From a virus: 64,000 nucleotides of DNA. Location: UHGV virus genome UHGV-0036582; one strand, 5' to 3'. The notes under the pieces are model-generated. The model made no database searches. It worked only from the letters and a program-made list of their open reading frames with translations, and was not told the origin of the DNA. A program made the position numbers and the translations under genes. The number at the start of each line of letters is the position of its first letter. Within the stretch, counting starts at the first letter, position 1. Below, piece after piece: positions 49,343-56,132 of the stretch.

Positions 49343-49417
49343 GATGGTGTAGCTCAGCGGTAGAGCAGTTGGCTGTTAACCAACTGGTCGGTGGTTCGAA
49401 TCCACCCACCATCGCCA
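49343..49417 (+). tRNA. tRNA-Asn (anticodon GTT)
   Basis: Cloverleaf folded by hand: acceptor GATGGTG/CACCATC, D-stem GCTC/GAGC, anticodon stem GTTGG/CCAAC with loop CTGTTAA, T-arm GGTGG-TTCGAAT-CCACC, 3' GCCA. Confidence 0.85.
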
Positions 49418-49422
49418 ATTTA

Positions 49423-49509
49423 GGGGAGTTAGTCCGTAGGGGCAGCGGGGTAGACTGTAAATCTACTGTCATTGCGACTCGGGTGGTTCGACTCCATCAC
49501 TCCCCACCA
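49423..49509 (+). tRNA. tRNA-Tyr (anticodon GTA), long variable arm
   Basis: Acceptor GGGGAGT/ACTCCCC, anticodon stem GTAGA/TCTAC with loop CTGTAAA, long variable arm, T-arm GGTGG-TTCGACT-CCATC, 3' ACCA; D-arm pairing irregular. Confidence 0.6.
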
Positions 49510-49513
49510 AATT

Positions 49514-49589
49514 GCCGGTTTAGCTCAGTTGGTAGAGCGCCTGCCTTGTAAGCAGGATGTCAGCGGTTCGAGTCCGCTAACCGGCACCA
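49514..49589 (+). tRNA. tRNA-Thr (anticodon TGT)
   Basis: Acceptor GCCGGTT/AACCGGC, D-stem GCTC/GAGC, anticodon stem CCTGC/GCAGG with loop CTTGTAA, T-arm AGCGG-TTCGAGT-CCGCT, 3' ACCA. Confidence 0.85.
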
Positions 49590-49813
49590 ATACAACGATA
49601 AGATCATTACGGTTAATCGTCGTTCATGTGCACAATGACTGGTCGAAAGGTAGTGATCTTACCGTTGTGGTGGATTCGCAGACTGATGCGATAGCTTTCT
49701 TGGATGTTAGGGAAATGCGGCCGCAAATCTTCCCTTTCGCGAGCGGTGATCGTCCGTAGTCCTAATTGGCTGCACCGTATGCCGGAGATTCAGTACCGGC
49801 CACCACAACGGCC

Positions 49814-49900
49814 GGAGAGTAGGGAGCATGGTGCTCAAGCGGTCTTGAAAACCGTCCCATTGCGCAAGCGATGATGGTTCGATTCCATTACTCTCCGCCA
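49814..49900 (+). tRNA. tRNA-Ser (anticodon TGA), long variable arm
   Basis: Acceptor GGAGAGT/ACTCTCC, D-stem GAGC/GCTC, anticodon loop CTTGAAA, long variable arm, T-loop TTCGATT, 3' GCCA. Confidence 0.7.
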
Positions 49901-50054: not shown

Positions 50055-50078
50055 AAAGGGGCTTCGGCCCCTTTTTTG
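50055..50078. terminator. bidirectional intrinsic terminator
   Basis: AAA-GGGGC-TTCG-GCCCC-TTTTTT; ends both the tRNA transcript and the convergent minus-strand gene. Confidence 0.85.
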
Positions 50079-50092
50079 TTGAACAGTGCAAT

Positions 50093-51355
50093 TTACTTTG
50101 CATAGTCGCCCAATTTTAATATTTCGCGCTTATATTCATTAACCATGCTACTGGATTCAGTATAAATTCGATTTAAAAGATTATCGTTATCTTTATTTTC
50201 ATTTATCTTAATTAGTGCTAATTTATATTCATAGTCATCAAATGCCACAATTAAATGGTGGCCTGGGATTATATCTTCGTCACTCTTAAAGTATATATCT
50301 TCAAGTATGTAATCTAGTTGATTAGATTTTCTTTTCTCGATGTAATCTTCAGCCATAGCTATTACATCATTCCTGTCATTTAACCTGTTTTTTTCGGAAG
50401 GCACATCTTCGTAATGTTGCACGATTGAACAACCAATAAGGCGTGGGATGTAAACGTCAAAATGAGTAACTCTATCATTCGCGGTTTTAAGTAGTTCCTC
50501 AAAGTAGTTTCTTACATGTAAAGGCAACTTCTCAAAGTAATCATTAATTATAGGAGAACAAGGAGTTTTATAATTCATAAGAACCGACGGTACGAGCTTT
50601 GGGTGTCGAAACATCCAGTCCCTTTTAACGTCCGATGGAACATAATAACTTTTAATGATATTATCAAAATAATTTATCATTCGAGATTTGAATATTTTGT
50701 TGAATCTAAGGTTTATGAATGTATCCAGATAAGGCATATTTGAATAAGCATCATCAAAAAATATTTCATCATTGAAAAAATCATATTTATTCAATAAACA
50801 ACACAGTTTTTCCGAATTAATATGTTCACAATAATCGATTTTTAATCCAAAGATAGCAATGATCAACTTCATCTGAGGTGGGATTTTAAAAATTAATTGT
50901 GACACATACGCTCTTTTTTCCTTGAGACATTCCCCATCAATATAAAATGAACCATCCACATACTCAAATATATTAATAATATGCTTCACATACTGTATTA
51001 CCTCATGCTGTCTTACCAATGGATAATATAGTCTATGTAACTCATCGCTGTTTAAATTAATTTTGTGTTTATCGATAATTTGTTTTGCAAGAAGACATAA
51101 CTCATCATGTTGATTTAATAAGGAATCAAACCATTGTTTAAATGCACTCTTTCGCATTTCGAACAATGATTCAGTTGTTAATTGAAGGGCTGAAAAAGCT
51201 GCTTTTGCACTTTTTCTCGCTTCGTAGGCATTCCATGCTGTTGCTATAAAAGCAAATGCTGTAGCCAATGTTCCAACAGTTTGACCATTTAAAACAACCC
51301 AATCCCAAAAAATGACGGTGAGCAGTAGTATAATAATGAAAATTAAAAAAGGCAT
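50093..51355 (-). CDS. AT-rich moron: membrane-anchored protein of unknown function (candidate exclusion/abortive-infection factor)
   Basis: 420 aa; N-terminal hydrophobic segments (FLIFIIILLLTVIFWDWVV, VGTLATAFAFIATAW); hand-counted GC about 20-28 percent in sampled lines versus about 50 percent in structural genes; opposite strand to flanking genes. Confidence 0.6.
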   Translation of the reverse strand: MPFLIFIIILLLTVIFWDWVVLNGQTVGTLATAFAFIATAWNAYEARKSAKAAFSALQLTTESLFEMRKSAFKQWFDSLLNQHDELCLLAKQIIDKHKINLNSDELHRLYYPLVRQHEVIQYVKHIINIFEYVDGSFYIDGECLKEKRAYVSQLIFKIPPQMKLIIAIFGLKIDYCEHINSEKLCCLLNKYDFFNDEIFFDDAYSNMPYLDTFINLRFNKIFKSRMINYFDNIIKSYYVPSDVKRDWMFRHPKLVPSVLMNYKTPCSPIINDYFEKLPLHVRNYFEELLKTANDRVTHFDVYIPRLIGCSIVQHYEDVPSEKNRLNDRNDVIAMAEDYIEKRKSNQLDYILEDIYFKSDEDIIPGHHLIVAFDDYEYKLALIKINENKDNDNLLNRIYTESSSMVNEYKREILKLGDYAK

Positions 51356-51529
51356 GTATGTATTTCACTCTACTAACTATAAAATATTAGGCTAATGTTA
51401 ACCAAACAATGCCTTAATTAATAGATTGATCGAGGCTTTAATAGCTTTATAATGCAGACTGTAAAGATAAGTATGCACATACCTATCTTCTTTGTAAGTA
51501 AAGTTGCATATCAATTCTATGAGGTAACA

Positions 51530-51775
51530 ATGACGATCACTATCTACGGACGAGATAACTGCTCATACTGCAAACGTGCGGTCGAGCTGGCGAAGCAACT
51601 AAAGGGACATGGCTACGGTGATTATGAGTACATCGACATCACCACTGCCGGTATCGACAAGGAAAAACTAAGTGAAATTGTTGGTAAACCGGTAGAGACT
51701 ATCCCCCAAGTGCTGATCGATGGCCAACCGATTGGCGGATACACAGAACTGGCTGCATACGTCAGCACCCTCTGA
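51530..51775 (+). CDS. glutaredoxin (NrdC-like)
   Basis: ITIYGRDNCSYCKRA CxxC active site; C-terminal PQVLIDGQPIGGY; ATG 51530 after GAGGTAA RBS. Confidence 0.75.
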   Translation: MTITIYGRDNCSYCKRAVELAKQLKGHGYGDYEYIDITTAGIDKEKLSEIVGKPVETIPQVLIDGQPIGGYTELAAYVSTL

Positions 51776-51780
51776 TTTTA

Positions 51781-51805
51781 ACGGCTCACAGGAGCCGTTT
51801 TTATT
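51781..51805 (+). terminator. intrinsic terminator after glutaredoxin gene
   Basis: ACGGCTC-ACAG-GAGCCGT followed by TTTTATT. Confidence 0.8.
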
Positions 51806-51854
51806 CCCACCAAACTCACTCCCGTTTCCCTTAAAATTCAAAAAACAACGTCAA

Positions 51855-51985: not shown

Positions 51986-53089
51986 ATGAAAAATAGCTTT
52001 GACAGAGCACGCGCTGCGGAGAACACCTCAAAAGAGGCGATAGAGTATCTCGAAAGAGCATCTCAAATGCAGGCCGTTATGATCTCCCAGGTCAGCAATG
52101 ACATGAGATTCTCGGACGCATTCATGTTATTCACTCGCTTATCTCTGCTGATAACCAGACGTCGGCCAGAGATCGCTGTTCATTGTATTTTGATACATGT
52201 TTTGCCGCACCTTGCCGATGTAAAAGTAAGTGACATTAATAGGTTCATGGTGAACCAACTGGTCAACCCACTAATACTGGATGGCAAAATTGTTATGGGC
52301 CGCCGCGTTTTCTCTCTGATGAAGCAGTTCCTTAGCTGGTGCGCCTTCCAGGGGATGATAGACGTGTCACCGTTAAACGATATGTCACTTAACAATGTTG
52401 CCGGTGGCGCAAAGCCCACACCTCGCGAGCGGAAGCTGACCGACGCAGAGGTATGGGTGTTCTGGAATATATGGGACTACTTCAATGTGTGCGCTGGTAC
52501 AAAATGGGCGGCCAGGCTATGTCTTGTATCCGCAAGACGACCTGACGAAGTACTGCGGGCTAAAAAAAGTGAGTTCAACCTCCAGCGTGGGGTTTGGAAT
52601 CAAGGCAAGAGAAACAAATCAGCCCGTGAGCATTCTCTGCCTTTAAGCACATTAATGCGCACATGCATTGAAGAGTTATTCGAATATGGTAAAGGCAGCC
52701 AGTGGCTTGTGCCTTCGAATAAAAAAATCGGGAATGATCTTCCGATGTCTAAAGTGGCAATAGCCCAGGCATTACGCCGTATCCTGGAACGACCAGAACT
52801 GATGGAGCTTGAGCCATTTACACCCCGAGATTTGCGTCGTACTGCGCGTAGTTACTTCCCAGCATTAGGCATAAGCCAGGAGGTATCACGCAAAATCATG
52901 AACCACAGTCTTGAGGGGATAGATCGGGTCTACGACCGGCACGATTATATGGACGAGATGCGAGACGCCTTAGAAAGTTTCTCGACGTACATCGCATCAA
53001 TCGTAGAGCAACCGGATTTAGACGAAATTGACCACAAATTCAAGGGAGATCGTCTATCAACAGAGCTTATTCGTGTAAATTTTTCATAG
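51986..53089 (+). CDS. tyrosine recombinase / phage integrase family
   Basis: C-terminal catalytic block PRDLRRTARS ... MNHS ... VYDRHDY (Arg/His/Tyr positions of the tyrosine recombinase fold); 367 aa. Confidence 0.7.
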   Translation: MKNSFDRARAAENTSKEAIEYLERASQMQAVMISQVSNDMRFSDAFMLFTRLSLLITRRRPEIAVHCILIHVLPHLADVKVSDINRFMVNQLVNPLILDGKIVMGRRVFSLMKQFLSWCAFQGMIDVSPLNDMSLNNVAGGAKPTPRERKLTDAEVWVFWNIWDYFNVCAGTKWAARLCLVSARRPDEVLRAKKSEFNLQRGVWNQGKRNKSAREHSLPLSTLMRTCIEELFEYGKGSQWLVPSNKKIGNDLPMSKVAIAQALRRILERPELMELEPFTPRDLRRTARSYFPALGISQEVSRKIMNHSLEGIDRVYDRHDYMDEMRDALESFSTYIASIVEQPDLDEIDHKFKGDRLSTELIRVNFS

Positions 53090-54032: not shown

Positions 54033-56132
54033 ATGTCTAAAAAACGTTCCATCAAAGAGGTTCAGGACTTCCGTGACAGTGTAAAACGAGTAGTCGCTCT
54101 CCTTTCAGGTAAAAACATCCCTGTTGCAGAACGAGGGGACGACGCTTATGTACGCTATAACGATGATGGAGAGCCAATTCTCGTAAACATCCCATCAATC
54201 CCGGATAACGCAACACCAGCATTGATGAATGCTGTGCGCGGATTTCTCGATCATGAGGTTGCTCACATTTTGTTTACCGATATTCATGTGTCCAACAAAA
54301 TGAGAGAAAAAGGACGCGTTCCTTCCTGGTCGCTATGGAATGCCTTAGAAGACGTGTTTATCGAGCGAAAAATGGGGCAGGTCTTTAACGGAACAAGACG
54401 TAATCTGATGGCAACTCAGCGCCTTATAATCGAAAAAGTCTTTAAACCAAAGGCTTCAGAGGCTATTACTTATTGTGGCAAAGATCAGCGCGCGCTTTTT
54501 CTAAACTTCTTTCTCTGTCCGGTTGTAAGAGCCTGGGATGGCCAAGCACCGTTCGTAGATTTCATGGATGAATACTGGCCTGTCATTGAGAAACCAATTT
54601 CATTATTAAAAGAACATGGTATCGATGTGGCCGTGCGTAACATGTCTTGCACCGGGGATTGTTTAAAGGTGGCTGCGACCATCGCTAAGATCCTCAAAGA
54701 CACAGAAAGTGAAAGCAAAGGTAAGGAGTCAGCTCCGGGAAAAACTTCCGATCCTTCAGACGCTGATCACGCGGATTCCTCTGGAGAAGGCGATGAAGAT
54801 CACAAGACACCCGAATCGTTAGATAATCACATATCTATTAAAGAAAATTCAAAAGGTAAGCACAAATACGATAATAACAACAGTGATAATTCAGATAACT
54901 CTGAATCATCAGAAACAATATTCGATGATACAGAAAATGATAAAGAGGTATCAGATTCTGGTGCTTCTGATAACGCGGCGTCAGAAGCATTGACCACTGA
55001 CCACGAAAAAAGAAAATCGACAGAAGACGGCTCTTCAGACATTCCAACTCCGTCAAAAATGAGTCTGGAAGAGGCTTTAGAGGAGTTGGATAGCATGGAA
55101 GATGAAGTCGGAGGCATGACAGAAGATGCGCTATCCGAAACGATTAAAAGCGAGTTAACAGAAAGCTCGAAAAGCGAATACAGGCCATACAATCGCTCAT
55201 ACGACTTCATCGGCTCGATTGATCAGGCAGAAGCCCATATCAAACGGCTTATTAAAACATTCTCCGATATTGATTTAGGTGGATATCCAATCAGCCGTTA
55301 TCGCATCGTTCCTGAAGGCAACCAACTCTTCGACAAATATATTGAAAAGCACCTTTCGTCAGGTGTTTCGTCGACGCTGGCAAAAGACCTGGAACGTGCA
55401 ATAGCAAGCAGAAACAGAGTTCAGTTTATACCTGGCCAGCGTCGGGGGCGCATTCATGGTTCAAGTATCTACAGATTAACAATGAATGATGATCGCGTGT
55501 TTCGTAAAAAAGAAGAATCTAAAGCCGTTAACGCCTGTGTTCAACAAGTGATTGATTTATCAGGTTCAATGAGTGGTATAACGATACAATTGGCTCTTGC
55601 AAGTGCATATACCATCGCCGATGCCCTTGATCGAATAAATGTTCCCAACATTATCACCGGCTTCACTACATTTGGTAGTCATATGGCGGCAGGAGAACTT
55701 AAGGCTGTCAAGTATGAGTTCTCTCGCTTTGAATCTTTAATGCTACCTATCATCAAAAATTGGAATGAAAAGGTAAATTCTCGCGAAGTTCGCTCACGTA
55801 TGGGGTGCGTAGGCTACACATTCCCACTTCTTAATAACGTGGATGGTGAAAGCATAGCCAGCCTTGCATCGTTATTTTCCGGTCGCATGGAGGACAGGAA
55901 GATCATGCTTGTTCTGAGTGATGGCGCGCCGTGGGCTGTTGGGAGAGGTTTTGACGCTCATTTGCGTTCGGTTGCGAAGCAAATTGAAACGCAGACTGAT
56001 ATTGATTTGATGGCAATTGGCATCATGACTGACGCACCGGAGAGATTTTACTCAAATCATGCCCTGGTAACGAGCGTTGATAGTCTTGGTTCATCTGTAG
56101 TTACTGAACTATCTCGTATCATTTTAAAGTGA
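54033..56132 (+). CDS. CobT-like von Willebrand factor A (VWA) domain protein
   Basis: C-terminal MIDAS motif VIDLSGSMSG; long acidic Ser/Asp/Glu-rich insert at about 54700-55100. Confidence 0.7.
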   Translation: MSKKRSIKEVQDFRDSVKRVVALLSGKNIPVAERGDDAYVRYNDDGEPILVNIPSIPDNATPALMNAVRGFLDHEVAHILFTDIHVSNKMREKGRVPSWSLWNALEDVFIERKMGQVFNGTRRNLMATQRLIIEKVFKPKASEAITYCGKDQRALFLNFFLCPVVRAWDGQAPFVDFMDEYWPVIEKPISLLKEHGIDVAVRNMSCTGDCLKVAATIAKILKDTESESKGKESAPGKTSDPSDADHADSSGEGDEDHKTPESLDNHISIKENSKGKHKYDNNNSDNSDNSESSETIFDDTENDKEVSDSGASDNAASEALTTDHEKRKSTEDGSSDIPTPSKMSLEEALEELDSMEDEVGGMTEDALSETIKSELTESSKSEYRPYNRSYDFIGSIDQAEAHIKRLIKTFSDIDLGGYPISRYRIVPEGNQLFDKYIEKHLSSGVSSTLAKDLERAIASRNRVQFIPGQRRGRIHGSSIYRLTMNDDRVFRKKEESKAVNACVQQVIDLSGSMSGITIQLALASAYTIADALDRINVPNIITGFTTFGSHMAAGELKAVKYEFSRFESLMLPIIKNWNEKVNSREVRSRMGCVGYTFPLLNNVDGESIASLASLFSGRMEDRKIMLVLSDGAPWAVGRGFDAHLRSVAKQIETQTDIDLMAIGIMTDAPERFYSNHALVTSVDSLGSSVVTELSRIILK

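Follow-up and report, generated by a model that had tools for sequence, protein, structure and literature searches.

The stretch of DNA analysed here (hereafter the window) comprises 64,000 nucleotides of the UHGV virus genome UHGV-0036582, and its sequence content identifies it as an SSU5/pHCM2-type phage-plasmid of Escherichia coli, with Escherichia phage Cyrano (108,379 bp) and 'CMS-2020a' as the nearest phage records. Beside its transfer RNA (tRNA) cluster lies an AT-rich gene for a protein of 420 amino acids (aa), which sequence comparison places in the putAbiC/AbiC superfamily (PF16872) as a divergent member, and which we consider a candidate abortive infection (Abi) factor. The features of this locus and of the encoded protein, including its predicted transmembrane (TM) helices, are as follows.

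49343..49900, plus strand: tRNA cluster (Asn, Tyr, Thr, Ser), the conserved left flank (ARAGORN, Rfam)
50055..50074: GC-rich hairpin AAAGGGGC-TTCG-GCCCCTTT, also present in Cyrano (terminator scan and sequence)
50079..51518: variable cassette without counterpart in Cyrano (blastn)
50096..51355, minus strand: AbiC-like coding sequence, 420 aa, ATG start, stop codon at 50093-50095 (list of open reading frames, GC content, dN/dS, phrog_18168)
51290..51352, minus strand: predicted TM helix 1, residues 2-22 (Kyte-Doolittle 19-residue means up to 2.83; model helices 2-15 and 17-22)
51068..51280, minus strand: predicted TM helix 2 (TM2, residues ~26-44) and juxtamembrane stalk as one long helix, residues 26-96 (hydropathy, AlphaFold2, alignment A3)
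50756..51010, minus strand: region homologous to the PF16872 core, residues ~116-200 (Pfam match of the relative P0007, hhalign, group comparison)
50096..50755, minus strand: variable C-terminal half, residues 201-420 (conservation, dN/dS, AlphaFold2)
51356..51529: AT-rich divergent intergenic region, 29% GC (promoter scan)
51530..51775, plus strand: GrxA-type glutaredoxin gene (grx), 81 aa, the divergent right neighbour (Pfam Glutaredoxin, E=8.6e-11)
51986..53089, plus strand: tyrosine integrase/recombinase gene, the backbone marker that bounds the accessory region (Pfam Phage_integrase)

An initial annotation had proposed a minus-strand open reading frame (ORF) of 420 aa at 50093-51355, and its coordinates, strand and length are all correct. 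It had also described the gene as antisense to its surroundings, which agrees with the plus-strand orientation of the tRNA genes, the glutaredoxin gene and the integrase gene. The suggested position between the tRNA cluster and the recombinase is accurate on the tRNA side, but the glutaredoxin gene intervenes before the recombinase. The ORF has a GC content of 31.4%, where the window averages 46.4%, and is the lowest-GC 1,263-bp stretch of the whole 64 kb (z = -4.4, with a standard deviation of 3.4% among 1,263-bp windows), and GC by codon position is 41/25/28%. The AT-richness that had been reported is therefore real and departs clearly from the window mean, although the figures originally offered for it (20-28% against ~50%) exaggerate the difference, given that 60-nt lines inside the gene range from 18% to 47% GC and the neighbours from 41-53%. 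A comparison with the allele of E. albertii, which is 86% identical, gave a ratio of nonsynonymous to synonymous substitution rates (dN/dS) of 0.32, with 0.11 in codons 1-70 and the highest value, 0.45, in codons 200-300. Judged by this ratio the AbiC-like gene is under purifying selection, and hence the ORF is considered a real gene. An overlapping ORF of 65 aa in the cassette (51171-51368) was rejected as unsupported, and an Rfam scan of the cassette region for hidden RNAs gave nothing besides the four tRNAs.

In database searches, the protein encoded in the window matched only a PHROG family to which no function is assigned (phrog_18168, E=2e-217), and canonical putAbiC members belong to this same PHROG. 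A direct search of 5.8 billion proteins returned seven cluster representatives. An exhaustive HMMER search with a profile of the subfamily yielded 66 matches among 1.84 billion representatives, and therefore the family is small; a third protein search, made with a broad profile, contributed at least four new sequences. Among the alleles found at the same site, the one that is 32% identical (P0007) matches the PF16872 putAbiC model over residues 131-212 with 18 bits (E=0.004), where the gathering threshold is 22 bits. The window protein lies below this threshold and has no Pfam match at all.

The connection to putAbiC is made by profiles and by pairwise comparison with more distant proteins. 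The subfamily profile finds proteins annotated with PF16872 at E=6e-37 to 1e-20, one of which is named 'putative phage abortive infection protein'. Conversely, the Pfam putAbiC model is matched at E<1 by nine of the 15 members of the clade plus its bridging sequences (best E=8.6e-9), and at E<1e-3 by 25 of 27 more distant relatives (best E=1e-10). An hhalign comparison of the window subfamily with putAbiC gave 99.9% probability (E=4e-32) over 379 columns. BLASTP aligns the window protein directly with a PF16872-annotated protein of Citrobacter (P0011, itself named 'putative phage abortive infection protein') at E=3e-31, with 27% identity over 342 aa, and with another canonical member (P0052) at E=7e-20; reciprocal tblastn likewise connects a canonical putAbiC protein and the window protein. 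On the strength of these alignments, we regard homology of the window protein to the putAbiC/AbiC superfamily as secure. The PADLOC models also reach the distant relatives, of which five of 27 match AbiC (PDLC02343) and two of 27 match AbiP (PDLC02351). One member of alignment A3 matches the PADLOC AbiP model at 0.002, and the AbiC model is unmatched by the window protein and its close clade. A tblastn search with P0052 against plasmids returned no Lactococcus records.

Two other leads were discarded. The 'AbiC' of Staphylococcus aureus (PMC13590631) carries an Abi_C/AbiJ HEPN domain and belongs to an unrelated family. A HEPN-like Rx4-6H motif was also considered, but canonical members have R-x3-H (MRvLYH), a spacing that differs from that of HEPN, and neither residue is present in the window clade. 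Some care is also needed with database entries. PGAP starts some alleles at an internal ATG (e.g. L009 2501-3733, NZ_AP022542.1), which yields 399 aa rather than 410-411 aa and removes most of the first TM helix, and several entries of the AbiC-like family are partial or split.

The canonical family, which spans Proteobacteria and Firmicutes and includes P0011 as well as Pantoea and Erwinia plasmid genes named by PGAP, resembles the window protein in more than its alignment over most of the length. Both fall in a length class of 410-470 aa, are AT-rich in their genes, occur as single genes on mobile elements, and form an all-helical domain. Both also begin with an N-terminal TM hairpin that is followed by a conserved helix rich in Ala, Ser and Thr, and share the core motif order F..F.LLL.QH / Y...L / Y.S.L...I / LL.K[FY]DFF. 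The hydrophobic N-terminal segments noted in the initial annotation were recovered at residues ~2-22 (Kyte-Doolittle up to 2.8) and ~26-44. A structural model based on a 56-sequence alignment (AlphaFold2; predicted local distance difference test (pLDDT) 85.5, predicted template modelling score 0.74) was used here, as an earlier model from seven sequences was unusable (pLDDT 61.6). In this model the second helix of the hairpin runs on as a 73-residue helix (24-96). TM2 and the stalk also contain the motif with the strongest conservation in the clade (T32 A35 A38 W41 A43 E45 A46 S49 A52 A56 L64 E66 F72 in alignment A3), and conservation along it is periodic, with a maximum at 102 degrees that was reached by 20 of 2000 shuffles. 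This helical periodicity suggests a helix-packing interface.

Downstream of the stalk, the homology is carried by hydrophobic positions. When residues were compared among three groups of the 56-sequence alignment, the window protein was found to retain the core scaffold (Y122 L130 Y150 I158 L188 F193 F194 F199). The polar positions at which canonical putAbiC proteins do not vary (G-H, S, M-R, H, K, S, R-S, N-D, N, Y-Q, E-H) give a different picture, as the window protein has R115 Q116 I120 V123 K124 N128 E131 I155 F156 P160 Q161 F169 L184 C185 N195 D196 at these columns, and S152 is the only canonical polar residue shared beside the hydrophobic scaffold. Because the scaffold and the TM2-stalk are kept while the polar residues are replaced, the Pfam and PADLOC models fail. 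Nearly all of the invariant polar residues are replaced throughout the phage-plasmid clade, which is also restricted to one site of SSU5-type phage-plasmids, and on these comparisons we class the clade as a variant of putAbiC rather than as a typical member. The initial annotation could assign no catalytic motif, and this statement holds, with even the polar residues conserved in canonical relatives missing.

The C-terminal half behaves differently. Conservation across the superfamily spans residues 21-200 and not 201-420, where column conservation is ~0.2 as compared with 0.42-0.61 for the N-terminal half. Over the last ~100 residues, alleles at the same locus cannot be aligned with one another. 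The model nonetheless predicts a mostly helical fold with a small three-stranded sheet for this half, with pLDDT mostly >85. A profile search of PDB sequences found nothing meaningful.

The loss of nearly all canonical polar residues, together with the occurrence of partial or split database entries, could mean that this is a decaying relic, i.e. an AbiC-type gene without its functional residues that persists through recent acquisition only. Such a gene should not exhibit a dN/dS of 0.32, let alone 0.11 in its N-terminal 70 codons, nor would we expect residues specific to the clade to be invariant among sequences with as little as 30% identity. Intact full-length ORFs are also present on more than 100 plasmids from five genera, and the protein yields a confident structural model. 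We consider decay very unlikely for these reasons.

The site that the gene occupies is variable among otherwise similar elements. All matches to the region in 5,426 complete E. coli genomes are plasmid-borne, and the protein is not encoded in any of 50,697 phage records searched by tblastn. The gene had been attributed to a temperate phage as an accessory gene; it is indeed accessory and lies on a prophage-like element, but this element is a phage-plasmid and not an integrating temperate phage. Where the window has its cassette, Cyrano has a 376-bp segment with an unrelated gene of the N4-gp49 family (CYRAN_41; Pfam). The window allele is carried by 39 of the 212 E. coli genomes having both flanks, and an identical protein is present on ~110-kb E. 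coli plasmids. Across phage-plasmids of E. coli and E. albertii, three backbone proteins (ligase, integrase and repressor) share 98-100% identity with those of the window, while the AbiC-like gene is either absent or encodes a protein that is 86, 54, 38 or 32% identical; grx is kept beside the AbiC-like alleles in both species. A Klebsiella allele with 36% identity is found at the same tRNA-proximal position. All alleles have a GC content of 31-34%, and the carrier elements 42-53%.

The integrase was found on 933 plasmid records, ~785 of them at >=80% identity, whereas a homolog of the AbiC-like protein is encoded on 139 PLSDB plasmids. Among Escherichia in PLSDB, the gene family is at the site in 72 of 229 (about 31%). 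The proposal of a horizontally acquired accessory gene is thus well borne out by absence from Cyrano, by occupancy (139 of ~785), by diverged alleles in near-identical backbones, and by AT-richness throughout. The ~785 plasmids with an integrase of >=80% identity (backbone 54033-56132, encoding a CobT-like protein and an AAA ATPase) include Yersinia pestis plasmids of ~101 kb and Salmonella plasmids of ~106 kb, and none of 63 Yersinia records sharing the backbone has an AbiC-like homolog.

By analogy, the interval from tRNA cluster to integrase behaves like the diversity hotspots reported for accessory genes of P2 and P4, such as P4 psu-int (PMC9122126). As with the temperate-phage hotspots (P2 old/tin and Z/fun; P4 psu-int), it is a small, high-turnover locus between conserved genes, and its cargo is AT-rich and, as is often the case there, antisense. 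However, it resides in SSU5/pHCM2-type phage-plasmids between a tRNA cluster and an integrase gene, and its cargo consists of allelic variants of one family rather than many unrelated systems. No description of this hotspot was found in the literature examined.

A second variable spot, the gap between grx and the integrase gene (51754-51836), is empty in the window. In Cyrano (L001 4594-5148) this gap holds an ORF of 184 aa (phrog_28788, function unassigned), and in other phage-plasmids of E. coli and Klebsiella (L005 4450-5478, L008 1326-2786) it holds a YafO-toxin gene with a partner of ~202 aa, to which Klebsiella adds a colicin E1-type immunity gene.

Relatives of the gene are found in three types of genomic context. 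The phage-plasmid alleles stand alone beside grx. The Citrobacter homolog P0011 is solitary in a P2-like prophage, between genes for tail-fibre assembly and sheath proteins, a position that we take to be that of the P2 Z/fun exclusion gene. The Pantoea plasmid homolog is likewise solitary, among transposase, recombinase, DUF4145 and RES-toxin genes. Given that the gene is solitary in all three context types and its neighbours are unrelated, a conserved partner gene is excluded, and these neighbourhoods are typical of defence cargo. The same Citrobacter prophage has an antisense gene with a CAP12/PCTIR TIR domain (L004 2653-3477) in the gap that separates the tail-completion gene (S) from the baseplate gene (V), and therefore two candidate defence cargos reside in one prophage.

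These distributions also bear on whether the protein serves the phage-plasmid in some way other than defence, for example in addiction, in lysis timing or in the modulation of host physiology. The YafO toxin-antitoxin cargo carried by relatives in the adjacent gap would fit such a role, membrane-anchored helical proteins can be toxic, and the defence reading itself rests on inference. However, no antitoxin partner is conserved across the three context types. Moreover, most elements of this backbone do without the gene (139 of ~785 have it), the inducible phage Cyrano included, and it is therefore not part of the core life cycle. The allelic hyper-diversity within near-identical backbones is also a better fit for a gene engaged in an arms race than for a housekeeping gene. 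A non-defence role of this kind consequently seems unlikely to us.

Considering homology, architecture, stand-alone organisation, accessory and hyper-variable status, and purifying selection together, we judge it reasonably probable that the window gene encodes a divergent AbiC/putAbiC protein that functions alone as a membrane-anchored anti-phage factor of the abortive infection type. It would be carried as a swappable phage-plasmid cassette, with a conserved N-terminal effector half and a variable C-terminal specificity half. Under this proposal, the plasmid prophage would express the protein from its own weak promoter, and the membrane hairpin would place the large domain in the cytoplasm, as predicted by the positive-inside rule from the basic cluster R47 K48 K51 after TM2. 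The N-terminal half, comprising TM2, the stalk with its helix-packing face and the putAbiC-like core, would be a self-associating effector, and the fast-evolving C-terminal half would set which component of an invading phage is recognised. When a competing phage infects, the protein might then block late phage development or compromise the membrane, either of which would protect the clonal population and the resident phage-plasmid. With the canonical polar residues gone, the mode of action of this clade is probably a membrane or protein-protein effect rather than one exerted through a canonical polar site.

The reference point for such a function is AbiC (Prf) of Lactococcus lactis, reportedly described by Durmaz et al. 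in 1992. Lactococcal AbiC has two TM helices and, outside the membrane, a helical domain to which no fold can be assigned, and its phenotype is a reduced production of major capsid protein with DNA replication unaffected (PMC13064643). The other member of the 'AbiC/P' group defined in the same study, AbiP, is an RNA-binding protein with a single TM helix (PMC13064643). The window protein shares two predicted N-terminal TM helices and a helical domain of no assignable fold (hydropathy, AlphaFold2) with AbiC, and in this respect differs from AbiP with its one helix. Also as in AbiC, it is the product of a single plasmid-borne gene, without a conserved partner in three contexts. It differs in that its host is Gram-negative and its carrier a phage-plasmid.

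A related possibility is superinfection exclusion (Sie), in which an inner-membrane protein blocks entry of incoming phage DNA at the envelope and no abortive mechanism operates after entry. P22 SieA, T4 Imm and lactococcal Sie2009 are examples of exclusion at the envelope. The N-terminal membrane hairpin and the location of a prophage-borne accessory gene at a variable site would suit such a protein, and with the polar residues lost, the ancestral putAbiC activity need not persist. Even so, ~375 of the 420 residues form a soluble domain that is predicted to be cytoplasmic, whereas typical Sie proteins are small. The homology is to AbiC, whose reported action comes after entry, and scans of Pfam, PHROG, NCBIfam and PADLOC revealed no similarity to Sie families. 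Exclusion at the envelope therefore appears quite improbable.

Several observations weigh against the Abi-type interpretation. The initial annotation had guessed at superinfection exclusion or abortive infection, which agrees with the homology to a divergent superfamily member, but the search of defence-system models that it proposed gave no PADLOC match for the protein itself, and Pfam, NCBIfam and PADLOC all lack a match even at E<=10. The link to lactococcal AbiC is transitive, as it is drawn through the PADLOC AbiC model, and the Pfam family name itself reads 'putative' (PF16872, 'Putative phage abortive infection protein'). Across the phage-plasmid clade nearly all canonical polar residues have given way to others that vary among its members, so that function may have changed given their loss. 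The structural model has no informative neighbour that would constrain a mechanism. The literature searched contains no phenotype for the window protein or for putAbiC homologs of Proteobacteria, and AbiC is absent from the list given by a DefenseFinder survey of 1,227 SSU5-group contigs. A lactococcal AbiC-like protein with 38% identity to AbiC failed to protect against the phages used to challenge it (PMC11381338), and authentic AbiC is itself without a settled mechanism (PMC13064643). Protection by a Klebsiella SSU5-like plasmid (PMC8969562) was considered as evidence and set aside, given that its authors credit a restriction-modification system and not the AbiC-like gene.

In a more specific form of the proposal, the clade would be an AbiC offshoot with a mechanism of its own rather than a copy altered by sequence drift. 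It would have discarded the polar site and act as a membrane effector through self-association and without enzymatic activity, its hyper-variable C-terminal half sensing phage proteins, and it would be located at a new hotspot that is missed by current tools. A conserved stripe of Ala, Ser and Thr residues that runs from TM2 into the stalk could provide the helix packing needed for self-association. We offer this version only tentatively.

The signals that flank the gene agree in part with what had been proposed. A bidirectional terminator shared with the neighbouring genes had been postulated, and a hairpin does begin 18 nt beyond the stop codon of the AbiC-like gene. However, the terminator scan reports it for the plus strand alone, and the T-run on the minus strand is interrupted (TTTGAATTTT). 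The hairpin is the predicted terminator of the plus-strand tRNA cluster, and is possibly bidirectional; blastn against Cyrano shows it to be part of the shared backbone, outside the inserted cassette. On the other side, the predicted AT-rich promoter region corresponds to the 29%-GC spacer, but the only minus-strand promoter candidate for the AbiC-like gene is weak (TTGGTT-18-TATAGT, 51376-51405, 8/12, ending 21 nt before the ATG), and the strong promoter in this spacer (51426-51453, plus strand) faces grx.

Some further observations concern the surroundings of the locus. Relative to Cyrano, the tRNA cluster of the window has an extra tRNA-Tyr (49423-49509) and a spacer of 224 bp and 50% GC between tRNA-Thr and tRNA-Ser (49590-49813) that has no counterpart there and in which Rfam and ARAGORN found no RNA gene. 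The tRNA-Ser (anticodon TGA, 49813-49897) reaches 46.6 bits against the Rfam model for tRNA-Sec, for which the gathering score is 47. Since ARAGORN calls a tRNA-Ser, the most likely reason for this near-threshold score is simply its long variable arm. Another patch, at 1514-2699 (31-41% GC), is the second lowest in GC within the window; it contains two minus-strand ORFs without Pfam matches, one of 82 aa (phrog_6145, 'moron/auxiliary', labelled MIT family metal ion transporter) and one of 216 aa (phrog_1513, function unassigned), and may be another accessory cassette.

Single-gene, membrane-anchored Abi candidates of the AbiC/putAbiC type in hotspots of mobile elements are already known, and an Abi-like moron on a phage-plasmid is no surprise to a specialist. 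What is new is a clade that is undetected by Pfam, NCBIfam and PADLOC and is not listed by the DefenseFinder survey of the SSU5 group, that has replaced the invariant polar residues of the putAbiC family, and whose alleles make up a series at a single fixed site in a phage-plasmid backbone that is widespread in the clinic. Phage-plasmids of the SSU5/pHCM2 type are frequent among clinical strains of E. coli, Shigella, Salmonella Typhi, Klebsiella and Yersinia, and the gene family evolves far faster than the backbone that carries it. Through the link to AbiC, what was a 'hypothetical protein' becomes a concrete and cheaply testable defence candidate, and the AbiC/AbiP group, poorly understood since 1992, gains a member in E. 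coli, where genetics is tractable. The series of alleles with 100, 86, 54, 38 and 32% identity, all in isogenic backbones, offers a means of mapping triggers and the determinants of specificity, and the loss of polar residues bears on which parts of AbiC-type proteins are required for function. If the clade does prove to be a mechanistically distinct offshoot, then phage-plasmids of the SSU5/pHCM2/pMT1 type in clinical Enterobacteriaceae would harbour an unrecognised defence hotspot that current tools miss.

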